The notes under the pieces: generated by a model
Seen by the model: only the letters and a program-made list of their open reading frames with translations
Databases searched by the model: none
What the model was told of the DNA's origin: nothing
DNA from: Candidatus Heimdallarchaeota archaeon
Lineage (GTDB): Archaea > Asgardarchaeota > Heimdallarchaeia > JABLTI01
Direction: 5' to 3'
DNA length: 32,000 nucleotides
Assembly (NCBI GenBank): GCA_030614005.1
Contig: JAUWKS010000023.1
Span: 17,414-49,413 of the forward strand
Position numbers and translations under genes: made by a program
In this document: one piece after another, positions 14,484 to 21,300 of the stretch
How the letters are laid out: each line of letters starts with the position of its first letter
How positions within the stretch are numbered: position 1 is the stretch's first letter

Positions 14484-15089
14484 TTATAATTCTAAACTAT
14501 TTAACAATTCTAATAGAGCTTCTCTAATACCTTCTTCATTAATGGAAGAGGATGGTAGTACTTGTACTCCATTCATATTTAGAAGTTCGCTAATTTCCTC
14601 AGGGGATTTGGCATCTGCTATATCTTGTTTGTTTGCTAAAACGATTAGGGGAACATCATCTCCCAATATAAGGCGAATTTCTTCATAGAGAGCTACAGCA
14701 TGACCAATATGACCTGAAATGCTTGAGTCAATAACAAATAAAATACCTTTAGCGCCTCTAAGCGTTGCTTTTCGAACAGCAGAAAATCGCATTTGCCCTG
14801 CTGCACCGAATAAGCCAATTTCTCGAACATTAGCATTTTCGTATTTCTCTTTATTATTTTCATAATCTCCATAAGCAATAATTTCTTCTTGCCCATCAGA
14901 ACTTGTAACCCAAACAACTTTGCCTAAATCAAAACCAACTGTAGTTGTTTGACCATCTGGTTGTAACTTATCTGCACTTCTAGCTCTGGGATCAAGTTTA
15001 TGTATAGTTGTTGTTTTGCCAGAATGATAGGGTCCGCCAATAACAATTTTAATTAGTTTACTAGTAAAAATTGATGAAATTATTATCAC
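14484..15089 (-). CDS. Small GTPase, MglA-like / archaeal Ras-superfamily
   Basis: G1 GPYHSGKTT, switch I TTTVGFDLG, G3 GAAGQMRF (no Asp), G4 NKQD, G5 SS. The GTG start overlaps the upstream roadblock stop (GTGA). Confidence 0.92.
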   Translation of the reverse strand: MIIISSIFTSKLIKIVIGGPYHSGKTTTIHKLDPRARSADKLQPDGQTTTVGFDLGKVVWVTSSDGQEEIIAYGDYENNKEKYENANVREIGLFGAAGQMRFSAVRKATLRGAKGILFVIDSSISGHIGHAVALYEEIRLILGDDVPLIVLANKQDIADAKSPEEISELLNMNGVQVLPSSSINEEGIREALLELLNSLEL

Positions 15090-15499
15090 GCACCTAATAC
15101 ATGGTCAGTTAAGACTTTATTGATTTTCTTGGTTGATCTTTCTATCTCCATAAACAAAATACCCAATTTTGCATCTCGCGGGGCAATTGTAATTAGAATT
15201 AGTTCTTGATTAACTTCAGTTAATATTGTAATTCCTTTCTCACCTTCAACGAGAACCCTGTGTAGTTTTTTGTGTTTGAAAGTTTCTGTGGTTTGTTCAC
15301 CTAGAGAAAGAATCGATGCTGCTAGAGCAGATGCTTCAAATTCATTTATGCTTTCTTGAGAAGCAGAGACTACTGGTAAACCATCCATTGAAACAAGGAT
15401 GGATGCATAACTAGAAGTTGTTTGTTCTAATTTTTCTAATATTTTTTGAATATTGCTCAATTGTAAATTAATATCTTCATTCAAAGTCTTGCACATCAT
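15086..15499 (-). CDS. Roadblock/LC7 (MglB-like) protein RB4
   Basis: ASILVSMDGLPV, EASALAASILSLGEQ, RVLVEGEKG, AKLGILFMEI. Confidence 0.92.
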   Translation of the reverse strand: MMCKTLNEDINLQLSNIQKILEKLEQTTSSYASILVSMDGLPVVSASQESINEFEASALAASILSLGEQTTETFKHKKLHRVLVEGEKGITILTEVNQELILITIAPRDAKLGILFMEIERSTKKINKVLTDHVLGA

Positions 15500-15630
15500 T
15501 TTTGTTTTTAGTTCGGAGCTTTAAAAATTGGATTATTTAGGCAATTTTGTCATAGTAATACAATAATACGAGTAAAAGTAAAAAAAAAAAATAAAAAAAG
15601 ACGAATATTACCCAATAAAGGACAATTATA

Positions 15631-16119
15631 TTAGTCTTTGAATAATCTTATTATCCAATCAGAAGCTATCTCTAATATTGATTCGACATCAGGATCAACC
15701 TTGCCCAGAATCTTCTTAACTGATTTTGTCATAGTTGAATAAATGGTATTGCTTTTAATAACCATCAAAACAAATCGTCGGTCGGATTTTTGAATATGAA
15801 TTGTTTTAATCCATATCTGGTTATCTTTTGTTATATATTGACTTGTTCTTACTGTGCCAACTCCAAGATAATCAGCAATTCTCTCTGAGAGAACATATGA
15901 TAATGCAGATGCAGCAGATAAATGATCTCTTTTTGATAATGGATGTAAGTTTTCAGAAATAATTAACCCTCCATCATCTGTTATTATACTTGATTGTAGA
16001 TTTCCAAATCGGTTTATTTCTTCTAATACTATTTTGAGTACAAGGCTTCTTGGAGGATCATCTAATTTTCTTATTCGATTTCGAAGTTTATTTTTGAAAC
16101 TCATTATAGTTTTTGCCAT
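15631..16119 (-). CDS. Divergent roadblock/LC7 protein RB3 with a basic N-terminal extension
   Basis: SSIITDDGGLIISE...LSAASALSYVLSERIADYLGVG has the roadblock pattern. ATG 16119 has a GGAGA SD; the track start TTG 16134 lies within that SD region. Confidence 0.75.
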   Translation of the reverse strand: MAKTIMSFKNKLRNRIRKLDDPPRSLVLKIVLEEINRFGNLQSSIITDDGGLIISENLHPLSKRDHLSAASALSYVLSERIADYLGVGTVRTSQYITKDNQIWIKTIHIQKSDRRFVLMVIKSNTIYSTMTKSVKKILGKVDPDVESILEIASDWIIRLFKD

Positions 16120-16145
16120 GTTTGATATCTCCAATTTTTCATTTC

Positions 16146-16541
16146 TTAGGATGTTGATACAATTGCCTCGTTAATTTTACCAATTGCCTTGTTTATTTCG
16201 ATGAAAAGAAGTCCAAGTCTTGCTTTTTTAGGGGCAACACATAATAAAATTAAATTGCTATTGATTTGGGTTAAGATTGAAGTTCCTTCTTCTGCTGAGA
16301 TTAATACTCTCTTTAATCCTTCATGTTTGAAAGTTTCTGTTGTTTGTTCACCTAATGCTAATATTGAAGATGCAACACCAGAAGCTTCAACTTCGTTCAC
16401 ATAATTATGTGCTGCTGAAGTAACTGGCATACCATCACTAGTTGCTACTATAGAAGCATATGTTGATGATTTCATTTCTAATTCTTTTAGTATTTTTTGA
16501 ATACTAGTTAATGCAAATGTTATATTTTCTATACCTGACAA
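16146..16541 (-). CDS. Roadblock/LC7 (MglB-like) protein RB2
   Basis: 64/119 ungapped identity to RB4. The likely start is TTG 16541, preceded by TGAGGTA-TTAATA (the same SD geometry as the TM2 genes). The track start 16646 adds 35 non-homologous residues. Confidence 0.88.
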   Translation of the reverse strand: MSGIENITFALTSIQKILKELEMKSSTYASIVATSDGMPVTSAAHNYVNEVEASGVASSILALGEQTTETFKHEGLKRVLISAEEGTSILTQINSNLILLCVAPKKARLGLLFIEINKAIGKINEAIVSTS

Positions 16542-16736
16542 TATTAATACCTCATTGTGGAATTTAACAAAAAAATCACTTGTTTTCTCGACATAATTCC
16601 AATGCAAGTGAAACGCAGTTAAATAAATACCTTGCTCTTTCGGCATAAATTGACAATAATTTATCCATTAATAATTTCAAAGTCAGCTTATTAAGTAGAT
16701 TAAAAAAGATAAAAATAAAAAAAAAGAATTGTGATT

Positions 16737-17102
16737 CTAAAGCATTGATACAGCTTCAGAAACTGAATTCTTTAGTTCAAAGAAAATTAAGCCTAATTGA
16801 GCATCTGCATTTGTCAAAGCAACTAATACAGCGGTACTTCCACATTCAACAGCGAGGGTATAACCTTTTTCACTTTTAACTAGAACTTGTTCAACAGATC
16901 CTTGATTCAATACTTTGCCTACTCTTGTGCCAAGAGCAATCATTGCTGCTGACATAGCGGATAAAGCATCAGCGTCAATTTTCTTTGGAAGAGCGGAAGC
17001 CATCATCAAACCATCACGAGTAACAATAGCGCTAGCAGTGACGTCTGTTCTTTGTCCGAGTCCTTCCAAAATACCTTCTAATTTTTGACGAGTTTTTGAC
17101 AT
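16737..17102 (-). CDS. Roadblock/LC7 (MglB-like) protein RB1, canonical
   Basis: ASAIVTRDGLMMAS, DALSAMSAAMIALG, EQVLVKSEKG, AQLGLIFFEL; GGAGA SD. Confidence 0.95.
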   Translation of the reverse strand: MSKTRQKLEGILEGLGQRTDVTASAIVTRDGLMMASALPKKIDADALSAMSAAMIALGTRVGKVLNQGSVEQVLVKSEKGYTLAVECGSTAVLVALTNADAQLGLIFFELKNSVSEAVSML

Positions 17103-17116
17103 TTTTTAGTATCTCC

Positions 17117-17668
17117 TTAGAAAATGAACTCTTCGTTCTCCAAAACCTCTCTGGGAGCGACTTTGAACTCACAAGCTGAATCTCCTAATGCTTCACACTT
17201 GACTTCAACGCATTCAATATCGTTGCGACCTGTAACTAGTCTCATAAAAGCTGCAAAAACACCTCTTGAGTGATTACAGTGGCCATTTGATCTTTCTTGA
17301 GCGACGATTTGCTTCTGTCCATCAGAAGCTTCGAAAGTTTCTGTACCAGCTACATAAGCAGTGCCGGCATCAAAATTAAATTCTTTAACATGGAAGTCAC
17401 CAAATCCTGCTTGTGAATATGCTTCCACGCCTGCGTTGTAACCGTTTTCATCTCTTGGTAAAATTCCACCGTCAAACATTGGTTTACCGAAAGTTGTAGC
17501 TCCTTCGATTCCTGCTAAATAAAATGCTTTGTTAGCTACAGGTCCGATGAACTCTCAAAGCTTGTCATAAAGTGCGTTAATATCACTTATAGGGAATAAT
17601 GCCATTCGAGCGATTCCAACTTTAATCATTCCGCGTTTTTCTATATTAATGAATTCTTTATCTGACAT
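17117..17668 (-). pseudogene. V4R-domain protein (183 codons) interrupted by one in-frame TGA at codon 38; either a pseudogene or error, or a recoded gene
   Basis: ATG 17668 has a TGAGG SD and is in frame with track ORF 17479 (63 codons upstream): MSDKEFINIEKRGMIKVGIARMALFPISDINALYDKL*EFIGPVANKAFYLAGIEGATTFGKPMFDG... The TGA is at 17557-17555. V4R motifs are YLAGIEG, QAGFGDF, CNHSRGVFAAF and EVKCEALGDSACEF. Confidence 0.85.
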
Positions 17669-17912
17669 TAGATTGCCTCAGATTTTTTGGAATAATTTGT
17701 TCATTTGAAATTAAATATTCAATCTCAATTTATTACATCCACTTTTCCCAACGAATACCTAAATATATAGTTGACTCTTACGGCATACTTCGACAAAAAC
17801 TGAAGAAAACCATTTGTGAACTATTTTTACATTTAAAAGTACTAAGGGAAAAAGTATTTAGTTTATTGTTTTGTAACGATATTTAAGCTAACAATTTTAC
17901 GGGGTTTTTTAT

Positions 17913-18611
17913 TTGAAAATATTGGTCATCGCTTCTTGTAGTAAAACAAAATCTATTCAATATCCACATCAACCAGTTTGTAGTGAAATACCATCAAAAG
18001 AGTCTCGAGAGCAAATATTACTTAAATTTCCAATGAAAAAAACTGCTAAGGATTTGTATAGGGGTGCATTAAATTTAAGCACAAACTCAGCAGTCAGGTT
18101 ACTGAAAAACTATTTTGATGTTAGCTATTACATTGTTTCAGCTGGTTTCGGGCTAATAGAAGAGAGCGTTCTCTTACCTCCGTATGATTGTTCATTTTCT
18201 GAAATGACTAAAGATCAGATCGTCGAACGGGCAGAATTATTACACATCCCAGAGGATTTTCAAGAAATTATTATCAAGGAAAATCCCGATTTGATTTATT
18301 TGGCTCTTGGAAAAAATTACCTAACAGCTATAGGGAAGTGGGATGAAAAGCTTCCTTGTAAAACAATTGCCTTTGATCATTCTGATTCAGCTAATGTTAT
18401 TACGCTGCCTGCAGATCATATTATTGTAAAGAAAGTGTCTCGAATAGGTGGATTGCCAATTCATGGTGTAATTGGTTTTAAAGGTGACCTCCTTCTGCTA
18501 ACTACACGTTACTTAAAGGAACAATCCAATCCAGAAAAAGCTTTGAAGGAGCTCCTAGATAATCCTGATGACTTAATTTACACTGTGAACTCTCTACGAG
18601 AACATACCTGA
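17913..18611 (+). CDS. YaaA/DUF6884-like protein
   Basis: ILVIASCSKTK, AKDLYRG, YYIVSAGFGLI, LPPYDCSF motifs; function not established. Confidence 0.6.
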   Translation: MKILVIASCSKTKSIQYPHQPVCSEIPSKESREQILLKFPMKKTAKDLYRGALNLSTNSAVRLLKNYFDVSYYIVSAGFGLIEESVLLPPYDCSFSEMTKDQIVERAELLHIPEDFQEIIIKENPDLIYLALGKNYLTAIGKWDEKLPCKTIAFDHSDSANVITLPADHIIVKKVSRIGGLPIHGVIGFKGDLLLLTTRYLKEQSNPEKALKELLDNPDDLIYTVNSLREHT

Positions 18612-18975
18612 TAGCAGCCTACTTCTAAATAATATAGATAGATTTTCTCTTTTTCTTTACTTCATTTTATTACAATTTTGAATATTTTTTAACAAAATTA
18701 TTAGGAAAGAGACATTTACTAAGAATTATATTCCATATAATAATAATTTGAATAGAAATTATTTTAAACTGATATTCCTAATTAAATTTGGAATACATTG
18801 GAGCAAAGAAAATGAGTCTAAAATTAAATCTAAAAATAGACCCAAAGGCACTTTCATTTCAACGATTCGTTTCAATTTCCGTCCGGGAAGAGTAAATTAC
18901 TGGTAGAGATAATAATAAATTATGAGAAGAACTATGGAACATTTCCATAAGTTTTTTTCATAATCGGTTTCTGAA

Positions 18976-19818
18976 TTATTCATTTGGACTAATCAGTTGT
19001 AGAAATTTACGAACTTGCTCATTGTCCTGATTAATAGAAAACAAATGTTCATCTGCAACGGATTTCTTTGCTAGAACAATTTCATGACTATCAAGTTCTT
19101 GCATATAAGCTTGAACCATCATCAAAGGGATTTTTAGTTCATCAGATATTTCTTGGGGTGACAAGGTCTTTCGTTTCTTAAGTAGTAAGAGAATGGCAAT
19201 ATTCTCTTTTCTACACAAAGTATCCATTTGTGGAGAAATGTTAACGCTAATTTTATCATCTACTTGTATTTCTTTTTCTGCTCGTTCTTTAGCAAATTTT
19301 TTTGCCCTATCGATGGCTTCTTCATCATCATCTACAAGATAGACCAGTTGAGAGGAGCGCATTTTTTGAAAAGTCGGTTCTAACGAAGTAAACACTTCTG
19401 AGGAAATTCCTCCTGCTTTAGAGAAAATTACTACATGAATTCCCAAATCTACTGCTAAAGATATCTGTATGCCAGTTTCTTCTCCTCCACCAATAGTTAT
19501 TACACAATCACTAGAATAAATTAATGGCCAACAGTGTTTGTGTCCATCAAAAGTTGTAGCGATGTTTACATGAGAATCGGGATTGCCTTGTTCTTTATAG
19601 TTGCCTGCTAGAACACCGACTGAAATACCACCTGCATCATTTACTCCTTTTGTAACTGCTTCAGTTACACCCTTTTTTCCACTAGTAATCACTGCAACAT
19701 TAACTGCTCTACCAAGAGCAAAACCGACTTTGTAAGCAAAATCCCATGCTGCTTTATCTTGTTCATTGTTTAAATCAAGTGATTTGCTTCCTATTACAGC
19801 AATTTGCAATTTTCTCAT
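18976..19818 (-). CDS. SLOG/LOG-like Rossmann domain (TIGR00725-like, degenerate) fused to a C-terminal winged HTH; putative nucleotide-sensing transcription regulator
   Basis: IAVIGS, VITSGKKGVTEAVTKGVNDAGGISVGVL, SSDCVITIGGG; C-terminal ILLLLKKRKTLSPQEISDELKIPLMMVQAYMQELDSHEIV...FSIN. Confidence 0.75.
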   Translation of the reverse strand: MRKLQIAVIGSKSLDLNNEQDKAAWDFAYKVGFALGRAVNVAVITSGKKGVTEAVTKGVNDAGGISVGVLAGNYKEQGNPDSHVNIATTFDGHKHCWPLIYSSDCVITIGGGEETGIQISLAVDLGIHVVIFSKAGGISSEVFTSLEPTFQKMRSSQLVYLVDDDEEAIDRAKKFAKERAEKEIQVDDKISVNISPQMDTLCRKENIAILLLLKKRKTLSPQEISDELKIPLMMVQAYMQELDSHEIVLAKKSVADEHLFSINQDNEQVRKFLQLISPNE

Positions 19819-19980
19819 AAGGGATTAACTTACATTAAATACTATTTTTGTTTTTCGATTAAGGTAGATAAATAAAGTAATAAGCAAACTATATGATAGC
19901 AATTGATTAATAGTTGAAATACAGTAAATTGCTACGCTTATTCTCTCTTAAGAAGAAATAATATCAGGAGTTATGAAAAA

Positions 19981-21300
19981 TTGATTGTTCGAGATCCAGT
20001 TCATGGTGATATATCATTCACAGAAAATGAACGAAAAATAATTGATTGCCCTGAAGTGCAAAGATTGCGAGGAATAAAACAACTAGGCACAGCTCATTTT
20101 GTTTATCCAGGTGCAACTCATACTAGATTTGATCATAGTTTAGGAACAAGTTTTCTAGCAAAAAAAATAGTTCAAACGCTACGATTGAATGGTTATGAAG
20201 TGGATTCTGAAACAGAAGAATTGATTGCTATTGCTGGGTTAGTTCATGATATCAGTCATGTTCCATATGGGCATACTTTTGAAGATGAGCGAAAAATTTT
20301 CGAGAAACATGACAAGAATGAGAATTTCAAGCGTAACTTATCTGCTGGAATGTTGGGTGAACAACTCAATAGTTTGGGCATAAAAAATAAGTTAATTAAA
20401 ATCCTTACAAATAAAGATCCAACAATTAATACTGGAGGAGAGAGTTGGATGAGTCAAATAATCAATGATACTATTTGTTCTGATCTCTTAGATTATATTC
20501 GAAGAGATTGTTATCATACCGGTATTAACAAAGATTATGATGATCGTGTACTAAGCTATTTCATAATAGAAAAAGGAAAGCTGGTTTTGAATTTCGTCAA
20601 AAACGGGATGGAACGATCTGATGCTCGCTCTGAAATTTTACATCTTTTGCGATTACGCTATTTTCTTACTGAAAGGGTCTATTTCCATCATGCTAAATTA
20701 TCCTCAGGAGCAATGATTTCCAAAGCAGTTGAAATGGCAATTAAAGAAGGCATTATTTCTCGAGATAGATTATACAATTTGAATGACTGGACCTTATTTT
20801 ATTTCTTAAAGGGATTCCCAGAAAAGCGACCTGCAACATCTCCTATTAGGAATCTTATAGAGCGAGTAGAAAAAAGACAGCTATTAAAACGAGCTTACGT
20901 CCTCTCAAGTGCAACTCTAAGTTCGAGAAAAAGTCGCGAGAATTTCATTCAAAAGTTTAATCCTCCAACTCCAGAAAGAGACCAAATAGAAGATATGATT
21001 ATTGATAGATTACAGAAAAAGAATAAGAATTTGAAAATTAACAAATCAGATGTCATCATTCATTGCTTAAGTTCTTCCTCCTTAAAAGAAGCAGAAGTGT
21101 TGATAAAAAACACTTCGGGAAAGATCACTCAACTAAACGCGAGACCACATCCTGCTGCTGACATAAAAGCTATTGAAGATTCATATGAAGATCTATGGCG
21201 AATGTATGTTTTCGCTGATAAAAAGTACGTTCAAGATGTAGCGAAAATTTGTGTAGAAACGTTTGGAAGAGAGAACGAATATTCGCCTAAGAAAAGCTAA
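19981..21300 (+). CDS. HD-domain phosphohydrolase, dNTP triphosphohydrolase/SAMHD1-like (COG1078 type)
   Basis: RDPVHG, QRLRGIKQLG, YPGATHTRFDHSLG, GLVHDISH, DLLDYIRRD, VYFHH; TTG start with a GGAG SD 10 nt upstream. Confidence 0.9.
   Translation: MIVRDPVHGDISFTENERKIIDCPEVQRLRGIKQLGTAHFVYPGATHTRFDHSLGTSFLAKKIVQTLRLNGYEVDSETEELIAIAGLVHDISHVPYGHTFEDERKIFEKHDKNENFKRNLSAGMLGEQLNSLGIKNKLIKILTNKDPTINTGGESWMSQIINDTICSDLLDYIRRDCYHTGINKDYDDRVLSYFIIEKGKLVLNFVKNGMERSDARSEILHLLRLRYFLTERVYFHHAKLSSGAMISKAVEMAIKEGIISRDRLYNLNDWTLFYFLKGFPEKRPATSPIRNLIERVEKRQLLKRAYVLSSATLSSRKSRENFIQKFNPPTPERDQIEDMIIDRLQKKNKNLKINKSDVIIHCLSSSSLKEAEVLIKNTSGKITQLNARPHPAADIKAIEDSYEDLWRMYVFADKKYVQDVAKICVETFGRENEYSPKKS

Follow-up and report, generated by a model that had tools for sequence, protein, structure and literature searches.

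The small GTPases of Asgard archaea, together with their roadblock/longin and TRAPPC3-like proteins, are widely discussed as the raw material of eukaryotic membrane trafficking. A locus combining genes of these kinds was found on the minus strand at positions 14484–17668 of a 32,000-nucleotide (nt) stretch from Candidatus Heimdallarchaeota archaeon (contig JAUWKS010000023.1, positions 17,414 to 49,413 of the forward strand; hereafter the window), where six co-directional genes encoded, in this order, a V4R-domain protein, four roadblock proteins (RB1 to RB4) and a small GTPase. Among described systems, MglA is regulated by a roadblock dimer, MglB, which is a GTPase-activating protein (GAP) for MglA and works in complex with RomY (PMC9481161). 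In strain MK-D1, GTPase genes are generally not placed in operons with genes for roadblock, longin or TRAPPC3 proteins, and the arrangement of genomes is of little use for pairing GTPases with their regulators (Tran et al. 2024, PMC10933270). A conserved ESCRT neighbourhood and a LAMTOR1-like/Rab-like/DENN operon were described in a preprint by Liu et al., in which most such Asgard genes lay outside conserved neighbourhoods (10.1101/2020.10.19.343400). The literature searched for archaeal V4R, TRAPP or KaiC together with roadblock and GTPase yielded no account of the cluster reported here.

The analysis established gene content, orthology and a conserved neighbourhood for the locus, as well as protein folds and purifying selection. 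The locus is probably a rearranged form, specific to this genus, of a signalling cluster conserved in Asgard archaea, with a mechanism inferred by analogy. The parts of this cluster would be a Bet3/V4R-fold protein (here called X) whose gene directly precedes RB1, a roadblock of the RB4 type, a divergent one of the RB3 type and an MglA/Arf-like GTPase without the G3 Asp. In the window, X would have been replaced by a zinc-type V4R protein, RB4 would have been duplicated to give RB2, and the genes would probably form three transcription units.

Conservation of the cluster in Asgard genomes

Profiles built for each part of the cluster were used in a survey of 399 Asgard species genomes. Orthologues of RB1, the RB4-type and RB3-type roadblocks and the GTPase occurred together in about 45 loci belonging to many genera. 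Conservation of gene order had been set in advance as a test of the sequence-only reading, in which the six genes were taken as one switch module; this core of three roadblock types and GTPase was conserved across many Asgard genera, but the V4R gene of the window was detected in only three of the 399 genomes, all from this genus. The nearest relatives, with GTPases 50–53% identical to that of the window, were arranged as RB1-[KaiC~GTPase]-RB4-GTPase-RB3 (L038 and P0004, the fusion inside these clusters being KaiC/GvpD-like) or as Y173-RB1-RB4-GTPase-RB3 (L148), while farther relatives (40–43% identity) had the order X-RB1-GTPase-RB4-RB3 and included G002, from the same genus, and the helarchaeote Hel_GB_B. 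Some clusters were collinear, X>RB1>GTPase>RB4>RB3, and the others divergent, [RB4<GTPase][X>RB1>RB4'>RB3-long], the latter having the same six-part content as the window.

X is an unannotated protein of about 158 amino acids (aa), encoded in 46 of the 399 genomes and in 25 of 85 genera, and in about 42 of some 50 X loci its gene was followed directly by RB1; it headed most of the approximately 45 cluster loci. It was not found in the present genome (90% complete); in the window its position, directly upstream of RB1, is occupied by V4R. The earlier proposal that a sensor-like V4R/TRAPP-fold protein, a roadblock set and one MglA-like GTPase belong together was borne out, since the combination recurs as a unit, as judged from the loci and the predicted structure of X. 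A tandem duplication of the whole X-RB1-GTPase-RB4-RB3 cluster was observed at L097 (G125:C89, 1987–8757), one copy having a gap of about 550 nt between RB1 and RB4 in which no GTPase open reading frame (ORF) was detected.

Roadblock types and the GTPase

RB1 (16737–17102, 121 aa), RB4 (15086–15499, 137 aa) and RB2 (16146–16541, 131 aa from a TTG start behind a GAGGT Shine-Dalgarno motif, the longest ORF extending to 16646) all scored above the gathering score of 23 bits for Robl_LC7 (Roadblock/LC7, PF03259), with E-values of 3.9e-14 (52.6 bits), 4e-11 (42.9 bits) and 2.8e-6 (27.4 bits), respectively. RB3 (15631–16119, 162 aa, with a GGAG Shine-Dalgarno motif before its ATG) fell below it (18 vs 23 bits, E 2.5e-3). 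It matched the RB3 profile at 1e-64, and this profile cross-matched those of RB1 and RB4; in a tree of 124 roadblock domains it was placed within an RB3 clade of 25 leaves (support 0.99). RB3 was thus assigned by sequence as a divergent roadblock, through its own orthologous group and a supported clade.

In the same tree, RB1 of the window fell within an RB1 clade of 45 leaves (support 0.95). Sharing 58% identity with RB1 of L038, it is, by these sequence comparisons, orthologous to the roadblock gene located immediately after X in the conserved cluster. RB2 and RB4, 54% identical, were sisters (0.95) and stood next to RB4 of L038 (0.98), the RB4 group as a whole being poorly supported in the tree; RB4 was 48% identical to L038 RB150, which likewise abuts its GTPase. 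RB2 is thus a recent, lineage-specific duplicate of RB4, and because the two are sister paralogues the locus contains three roadblock types, not the four roadblocks counted earlier.

Several longer or solitary variants of these proteins were observed. In the divergent form of the cluster (L103, 3214–4794; L104, 4517–6127; and similar loci), RB3 is the C-terminal domain of a protein of 450–560 aa, and Pfam gave no match, including none to a DENN domain, on the N-terminal approximately 320 residues of these long forms. Family f31 comprises RB4 with an N-terminal extension of about 130 aa; neither the long RB4 forms nor the 219-aa RB3 of L105 had a Pfam match. A second, solitary RB3-like paralogue of 161–179 aa occurred in each of the ten genomes of this genus that were searched, in the present one at G000:C24:2658–3038 (L099), away from any detectable cluster gene.

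The GTPase (14484–15089, 201 aa; Pfam Arf, 7.4e-13) had canonical G1 (GxxxxGKT), G2 and G4 (NKQD) motifs, whereas its G3 motif was GxxGQ and lacked the Asp. The absence of this Asp had been pointed out before and proved to be a family trait, GxxGQ being invariant in 35 members (alignments A2 and A7). The AlphaFold2 model, a single G domain with a predicted local distance difference test score (pLDDT) of 91.7, had as its top structural match Thermus thermophilus MglA in the MglB complex (3t12_A; Z 22.3, root-mean-square deviation 1.8 A over 158 residues, 28% identity), with Arl6 and Arf6 within 1 Z of it (Z 21.5–21.7). Profile comparison gave similar scores for Asgard ArfR structures and MglA (2e-14 for the ArfR 8oun vs 1.3e-12 for MglA) and paired the segment LkGvpGQ of the GTPase with LYTVPGQ of MglA. 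The label MglA/Arf-like is therefore defensible. Few close relatives of the protein were found among 5.8 billion proteins; GTPases of this family were paired with a single roadblock gene in Thermoproteota and Nitrososphaerota.

Predicted fold of X and the V4R protein of the window

X had no match in Pfam or NCBIfam. Its AlphaFold2 model (pLDDT 76.7, predicted template modelling score 0.72) consisted of N-terminal helices followed by a beta-beta-alpha-alpha-beta-beta unit, for which the best Foldseek matches were the phenol-sensor (V4R) domains of MopR, PoxR and DmpR as well as TRAPP subunits (E 2e-4 to 5e-3). An exhaustive VIA-align search against 48,161 chains gave the TRAPP Bet3-family chains 7b6d_F (Z 11.1), 2cfh_A (Z 11.0) and 3cue_B (Z 10.0), then Thor-TRAPPC3 (7yh2_A, Z 10.0), PoxR (Z 9.1) and DmpR (Z 9.0), and eight matches reached a Z of at least 8, the majority of them TRAPP subunits or V4R sensors. 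On this model, X is predicted to have the Bet3/V4R fold and to lack the cysteine metal site.

With its in-frame TGA (see below) read through, the V4R protein of the window matched PF02830 at 7.9e-8 (32.7 bits vs a cut-off of 31). The zinc-type Cys-Glu-Cys-Cys columns (C131, E155, C158 and C166), invariant in alignment A5, were all present, which by sequence makes it a true zinc-type, PoxR/MopR-like V4R protein. Its presence in the slot of X may mean that one input subunit was displaced by another of the same fold. Wider V4R relatives were mostly N-terminal sensor domains of proteins of about 300–1300 aa. P0014, a V4R protein with 41% identity, adjoined a roadblock gene, and a metagenome-assembled genome of Halobacteriota contained the strings KaiC~GTPase-roadblock-V4R and roadblock-V4R-V4R, so that adjacency of V4R and roadblock genes recurs independently. 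In the latter genome (L062, JAXHTJ010000016.1, 3041–12925), which links V4R, roadblock and GTPase outside Asgard archaea, the first string carried a fusion of a KaiC domain with a small GTPase of 389 aa, and a further string was roadblock-roadblock-KaiC~GTPase (392 aa). The cysteine-bearing 173-aa protein encoded upstream of RB1 at L148 (655–1176) had no Pfam match; its protein-atlas (language-model) features gave weak pointers (maximum 0.86), divided among ATC_hydrolase, DUF6125, V4R and TRAPP clusters. Possibly, this protein is a third form of the input subunit.

By analogy with MglB, Ragulator and TRAPP, the roadblock paralogues of the cluster would form heteromeric platforms, to which the GTPase would bind and by which its nucleotide state would be set, and a V4R/Bet3-fold subunit docked through RB1 would supply a small-molecule or lipid input. 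In the window, where the V4R frame is cut at codon 38, this input arm may be inactive or dependent on read-through. A more specific form of the idea, in which the cluster would be a dedicated, operon-encoded "proto-TRAPP/Ragulator" whose Bet3/V4R-fold subunit attaches via RB1 to a heteromeric RB4-type/RB3-type platform, this platform serving as a ligand-controlled guanine nucleotide exchange factor or GAP for one MglA/Arf-like GTPase, with the swap of X for V4R showing the input subunit to be modular, is put forward only tentatively.

The interrupted V4R gene and the locus in congeners

Several points weigh against reading the locus as a rearranged member of the conserved cluster. The roadblock types were labelled with profiles seeded on the same clusters, which introduces a mild, partial circularity. 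The comparison of X with V4R by hhalign gave a probability of 0.45%, hence no link at the level of sequence, and the notion of the same fold in the same slot depends on one predicted model. Every protein contact and activity in the mechanism above would be carried over from related systems. Furthermore, the V4R gene contains an in-frame TGA at 17555–17557 (codon 38), and V4R-RB1 does not need this GTPase, the module being dispensable in the genus. The last two points follow from comparison with congeners, as described below.

With its 183 codons, V4R occupied 17117–17668, and a GAGG Shine-Dalgarno motif stood 7 nt upstream of its ATG. The family and position assigned to this gene by the sequence-only reading were upheld, but its frame is interrupted: without read-through, the longest V4R ORF comprised 120 aa and started at 17479. 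Intact orthologues of 183 aa were present in the congeners G010 (84% identity) and G001 (about 95%), and both read CTT GTA GAG, with Val, where the window reads CTT TGA GAG, a two-base difference. Selenocysteine or a reassigned TGA was ruled out, as the congeners have Val (GTA) at the site and RB4 in the same cluster ends with TGA. Pairwise ratios of nonsynonymous to synonymous substitution rates (dN/dS) were 0.04–0.14 for V4R, 0.18–0.20 for RB1 and 0.04–0.09 for flanking genes; thus, V4R and RB1 are under purifying selection and, because the dN/dS of V4R is low, the lesion is either recent or an assembly or allele artefact. Logan contigs matched the window identically over most of the region. 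Among the contigs listed for sequencing runs X1 and X2, none covered the TGA site, and those of run X1 broke on both sides of it; one public cold-seep contig of run X3 (17533–17773) spanned the TGA and differed from the window by two letters at positions that are unlisted, which would fit the GTA allele. The runs listed were of cold-seep and marine-sediment DNA, with no RNA among them. Structure prediction for a complex of V4R (A5) with RB1 (A6), run without controls, gave ipSAE values of 0.06 and 0.02 vs a mark of 0.32 and favours neither binding nor non-binding.

The flanks of the locus were collinear in G010 and G001, the gene order being HD hydrolase, SLOG-winged helix-turn-helix (wHTH), DUF6884, V4R, RB1 and a class I aminoacyl-tRNA synthetase (aaRS)-like gene. 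G010 lacked the counterpart of window positions 16720–14427, that is, exactly RB2-RB3-RB4-GTPase, and had V4R-RB1 directly against the aaRS gene. In G001, whose flank contained the DUF6884 and HD genes with no SLOG-wHTH ORF listed between them, positions 16708–14703 were missing and a stump encoding GTPase residues 127–201, with a TAA in it, was retained. Since G001 keeps this GTPase stump, the six-gene layout predates the split between the present genome (G000) and G001 and was deleted later in G001. Because V4R-RB1 is conserved in G010 and G001 without the block, the pair can do without this GTPase, and the claim of a self-contained unit was not sustained, V4R-RB1 being under purifying selection in congeners that lack the GTPase block.

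These deletions bear on the main rival explanation, according to which the locus consists of two independent units that happen to adjoin, an autonomous V4R-RB1 pair, for example a sensor and an adaptor with other targets, and an RB2-RB3-RB4-GTPase cassette of the MglA/MglB type. The exact borders of the block missing in G010, the deletion from RB2 to mid-GTPase in G001, the continued purifying selection on V4R and RB1, the T-rich tracts separating the two parts and an additional X-RB1 pair without the other genes at L110 would all agree with it. However, dozens of clusters carry the RB1 orthologue between X and the GTPase gene, and the nearest relatives have RB1 in the same gene string as RB4-GTPase-RB3; two independent units are thus considered unlikely, though worth keeping in view. 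The same losses, together with the two-base change that put TGA in place of a conserved Val, the TAA in the G001 stump and the restriction of V4R to three genomes, could also mean that the locus is a decaying accessory in this genus, V4R being a fresh pseudogene, the rest perhaps on its way out and nothing functional left in this strain. Against such decay stand the five other ORFs, which are intact with Shine-Dalgarno motifs and a coupled overlap, and the low dN/dS of the rest of V4R, and the TGA itself may reflect a minor allele or faulty assembly; this explanation is judged improbable. A rearranged version of the conserved cluster, with an input gene that is possibly damaged in this strain, thus remains the preferred reading.

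Gene layout and neighbouring genes

From the ORF listing, translation and Pfam scans, the six genes were all on the minus strand, V4R and RB1 being 14 nt apart and RB2 and RB3 26 nt apart, while the TGA stop of RB4 overlapped the GTG start of the GTPase by 4 nt, through which RB4 is translationally coupled to the GTPase. The intergenic region between RB1 and RB2 (16542–16736, 195 nt) had T10, T5 and T6 tracts directly after RB1; it may comprise an archaeal terminator and, behind that, the promoter of an RB2-RB3 unit. That between RB3 and RB4 (15500–15630, 131 nt) had T7 and T11-12 tracts, and a TTTTTAAA box at -28 to -21 relative to the RB4 ATG is a candidate promoter of a leaderless RB4-GTPase transcript. 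Three transcription units, V4R-RB1, RB2-RB3 and RB4-GTPase, are therefore plausible on sequence grounds. The sequence-only reading had listed these genes, spacings, T tracts and the overlap, and all were present in the ORF listing and the sequence. Its arrangement in three pairs exists here but is lineage-specific, the genes elsewhere being ordered X-RB1-GTPase-RB4-RB3 or split into two divergent operons. Overall, what it observed was confirmed in part and its interpretation was partly supported. The clustering of the roadblock genes is not due to chance, because only 10 Pfam-level roadblock matches were found in the 3.6-Mb genome, three of which fall, along with the sub-threshold RB3, inside these 2.5 kb.

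Upstream of V4R, window positions 17913–21300 encoded a DUF6884 protein, a fusion of SLOG and wHTH, and an HD hydrolase that also carries an HD-associated domain; the neighbour on the other side was, by sequence, the class I aaRS-like gene. The presence of roadblock genes beside an MglA-like GTPase gene, and the position of the X-type cluster of G002 about 1.3 kb from a gene for a 1428-aa PAS/histidine-kinase-like protein, could be taken to mean that the locus is the archaeal counterpart of CvnA-D, the conservon of actinobacteria, a kinase-linked roadblock-GTPase relay. Such an identity is very improbable, as the Pfam scan of the neighbours (DUF6884, SLOG-wHTH and HD hydrolase) revealed no histidine kinase and no DUF742/CvnC-like gene, and the Bet3/V4R-fold subunit and the three roadblock types are without counterpart in conservons. 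In G002 (L037, contig C161 of that genome, 726–6129), the 1428-aa gene and one for a 340-aa seven-blade WD40 protein precede the X-type cluster on the opposite strand.

Comparison with known systems

MglA has an intrinsic arginine before the G2 Thr. In the GTPase of the window, the residues that precede the G2 Thr, read without alignment of this region to MglA, are other than Arg. Like the MglA/MglB switch of Myxococcus xanthus and T. thermophilus (PDB 3t12 and 6h5b), the locus places a GTPase without the G3 Asp beside a roadblock gene, with GxxGQ as G3 in the window and TxxGQ in MglA; unlike that switch, it has three roadblock types plus a duplicate, a V4R/Bet3-fold subunit and a GTPase equally near to Arf/Arl.

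The TRAPP core (Bet3/TRAPPC3, C5 and C6 with longin subunits; an exchange factor for Rab) and Thor-TRAPPC3 (PDB 7yh2; PMC10933270) resemble the locus in that a Bet3/V4R-fold protein is coupled, here genetically, to proteins of the roadblock/longin superfamily and to a small GTPase. However, the partners here match Pfam Roadblock/LC7 and not longin, the protein of the window is a zinc-type V4R and not Pfam TRAPP (PF04051), and the relation in fold is drawn from the model of X, the association being known here from genes. Ragulator-Rag, with its LAMTOR2/3 and LAMTOR4/5 heterodimers and the Rag GTPases, likewise uses several roadblock paralogues for one GTPase system, but the GTPase of the window, at 201 aa, is modelled as one G domain and has no C-terminal roadblock domain such as that of Rag proteins, and no LAMTOR1-like anchor was identified at the locus. 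The Asgard LAMTOR1-like/Rab-like/DENN operon is also a conserved neighbourhood joining roadblock and small GTPase; the present cluster differs in having no DENN domain by Pfam, a GTPase of another family and a Bet3/V4R-fold subunit. Conservons CvnA-D unite roadblock and MglA-like GTPase genes in one operon, but they have no Bet3/V4R-fold partner, and no sensor kinase or CvnC-type gene was seen here.

The locus belongs to a known kind, the roadblock-regulated small GTPase modules, and what is specific to the window is the swap of V4R for X, the duplication of RB4, the layout in three units and the ongoing decay in the genus. The cluster names candidate partners, namely a single GTPase, roadblocks of three types and a Bet3/V4R-fold protein, all of them small, soluble, expressible and assayable. 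Since a V4R ligand-sensor protein appears to have displaced a Bet3-like subunit, this position can be argued to be the input module, and the congeners, which show which parts can be lost, offer a natural experiment. Thus, a possible forerunner of the eukaryotic complexes of GTPases and their regulators becomes testable.

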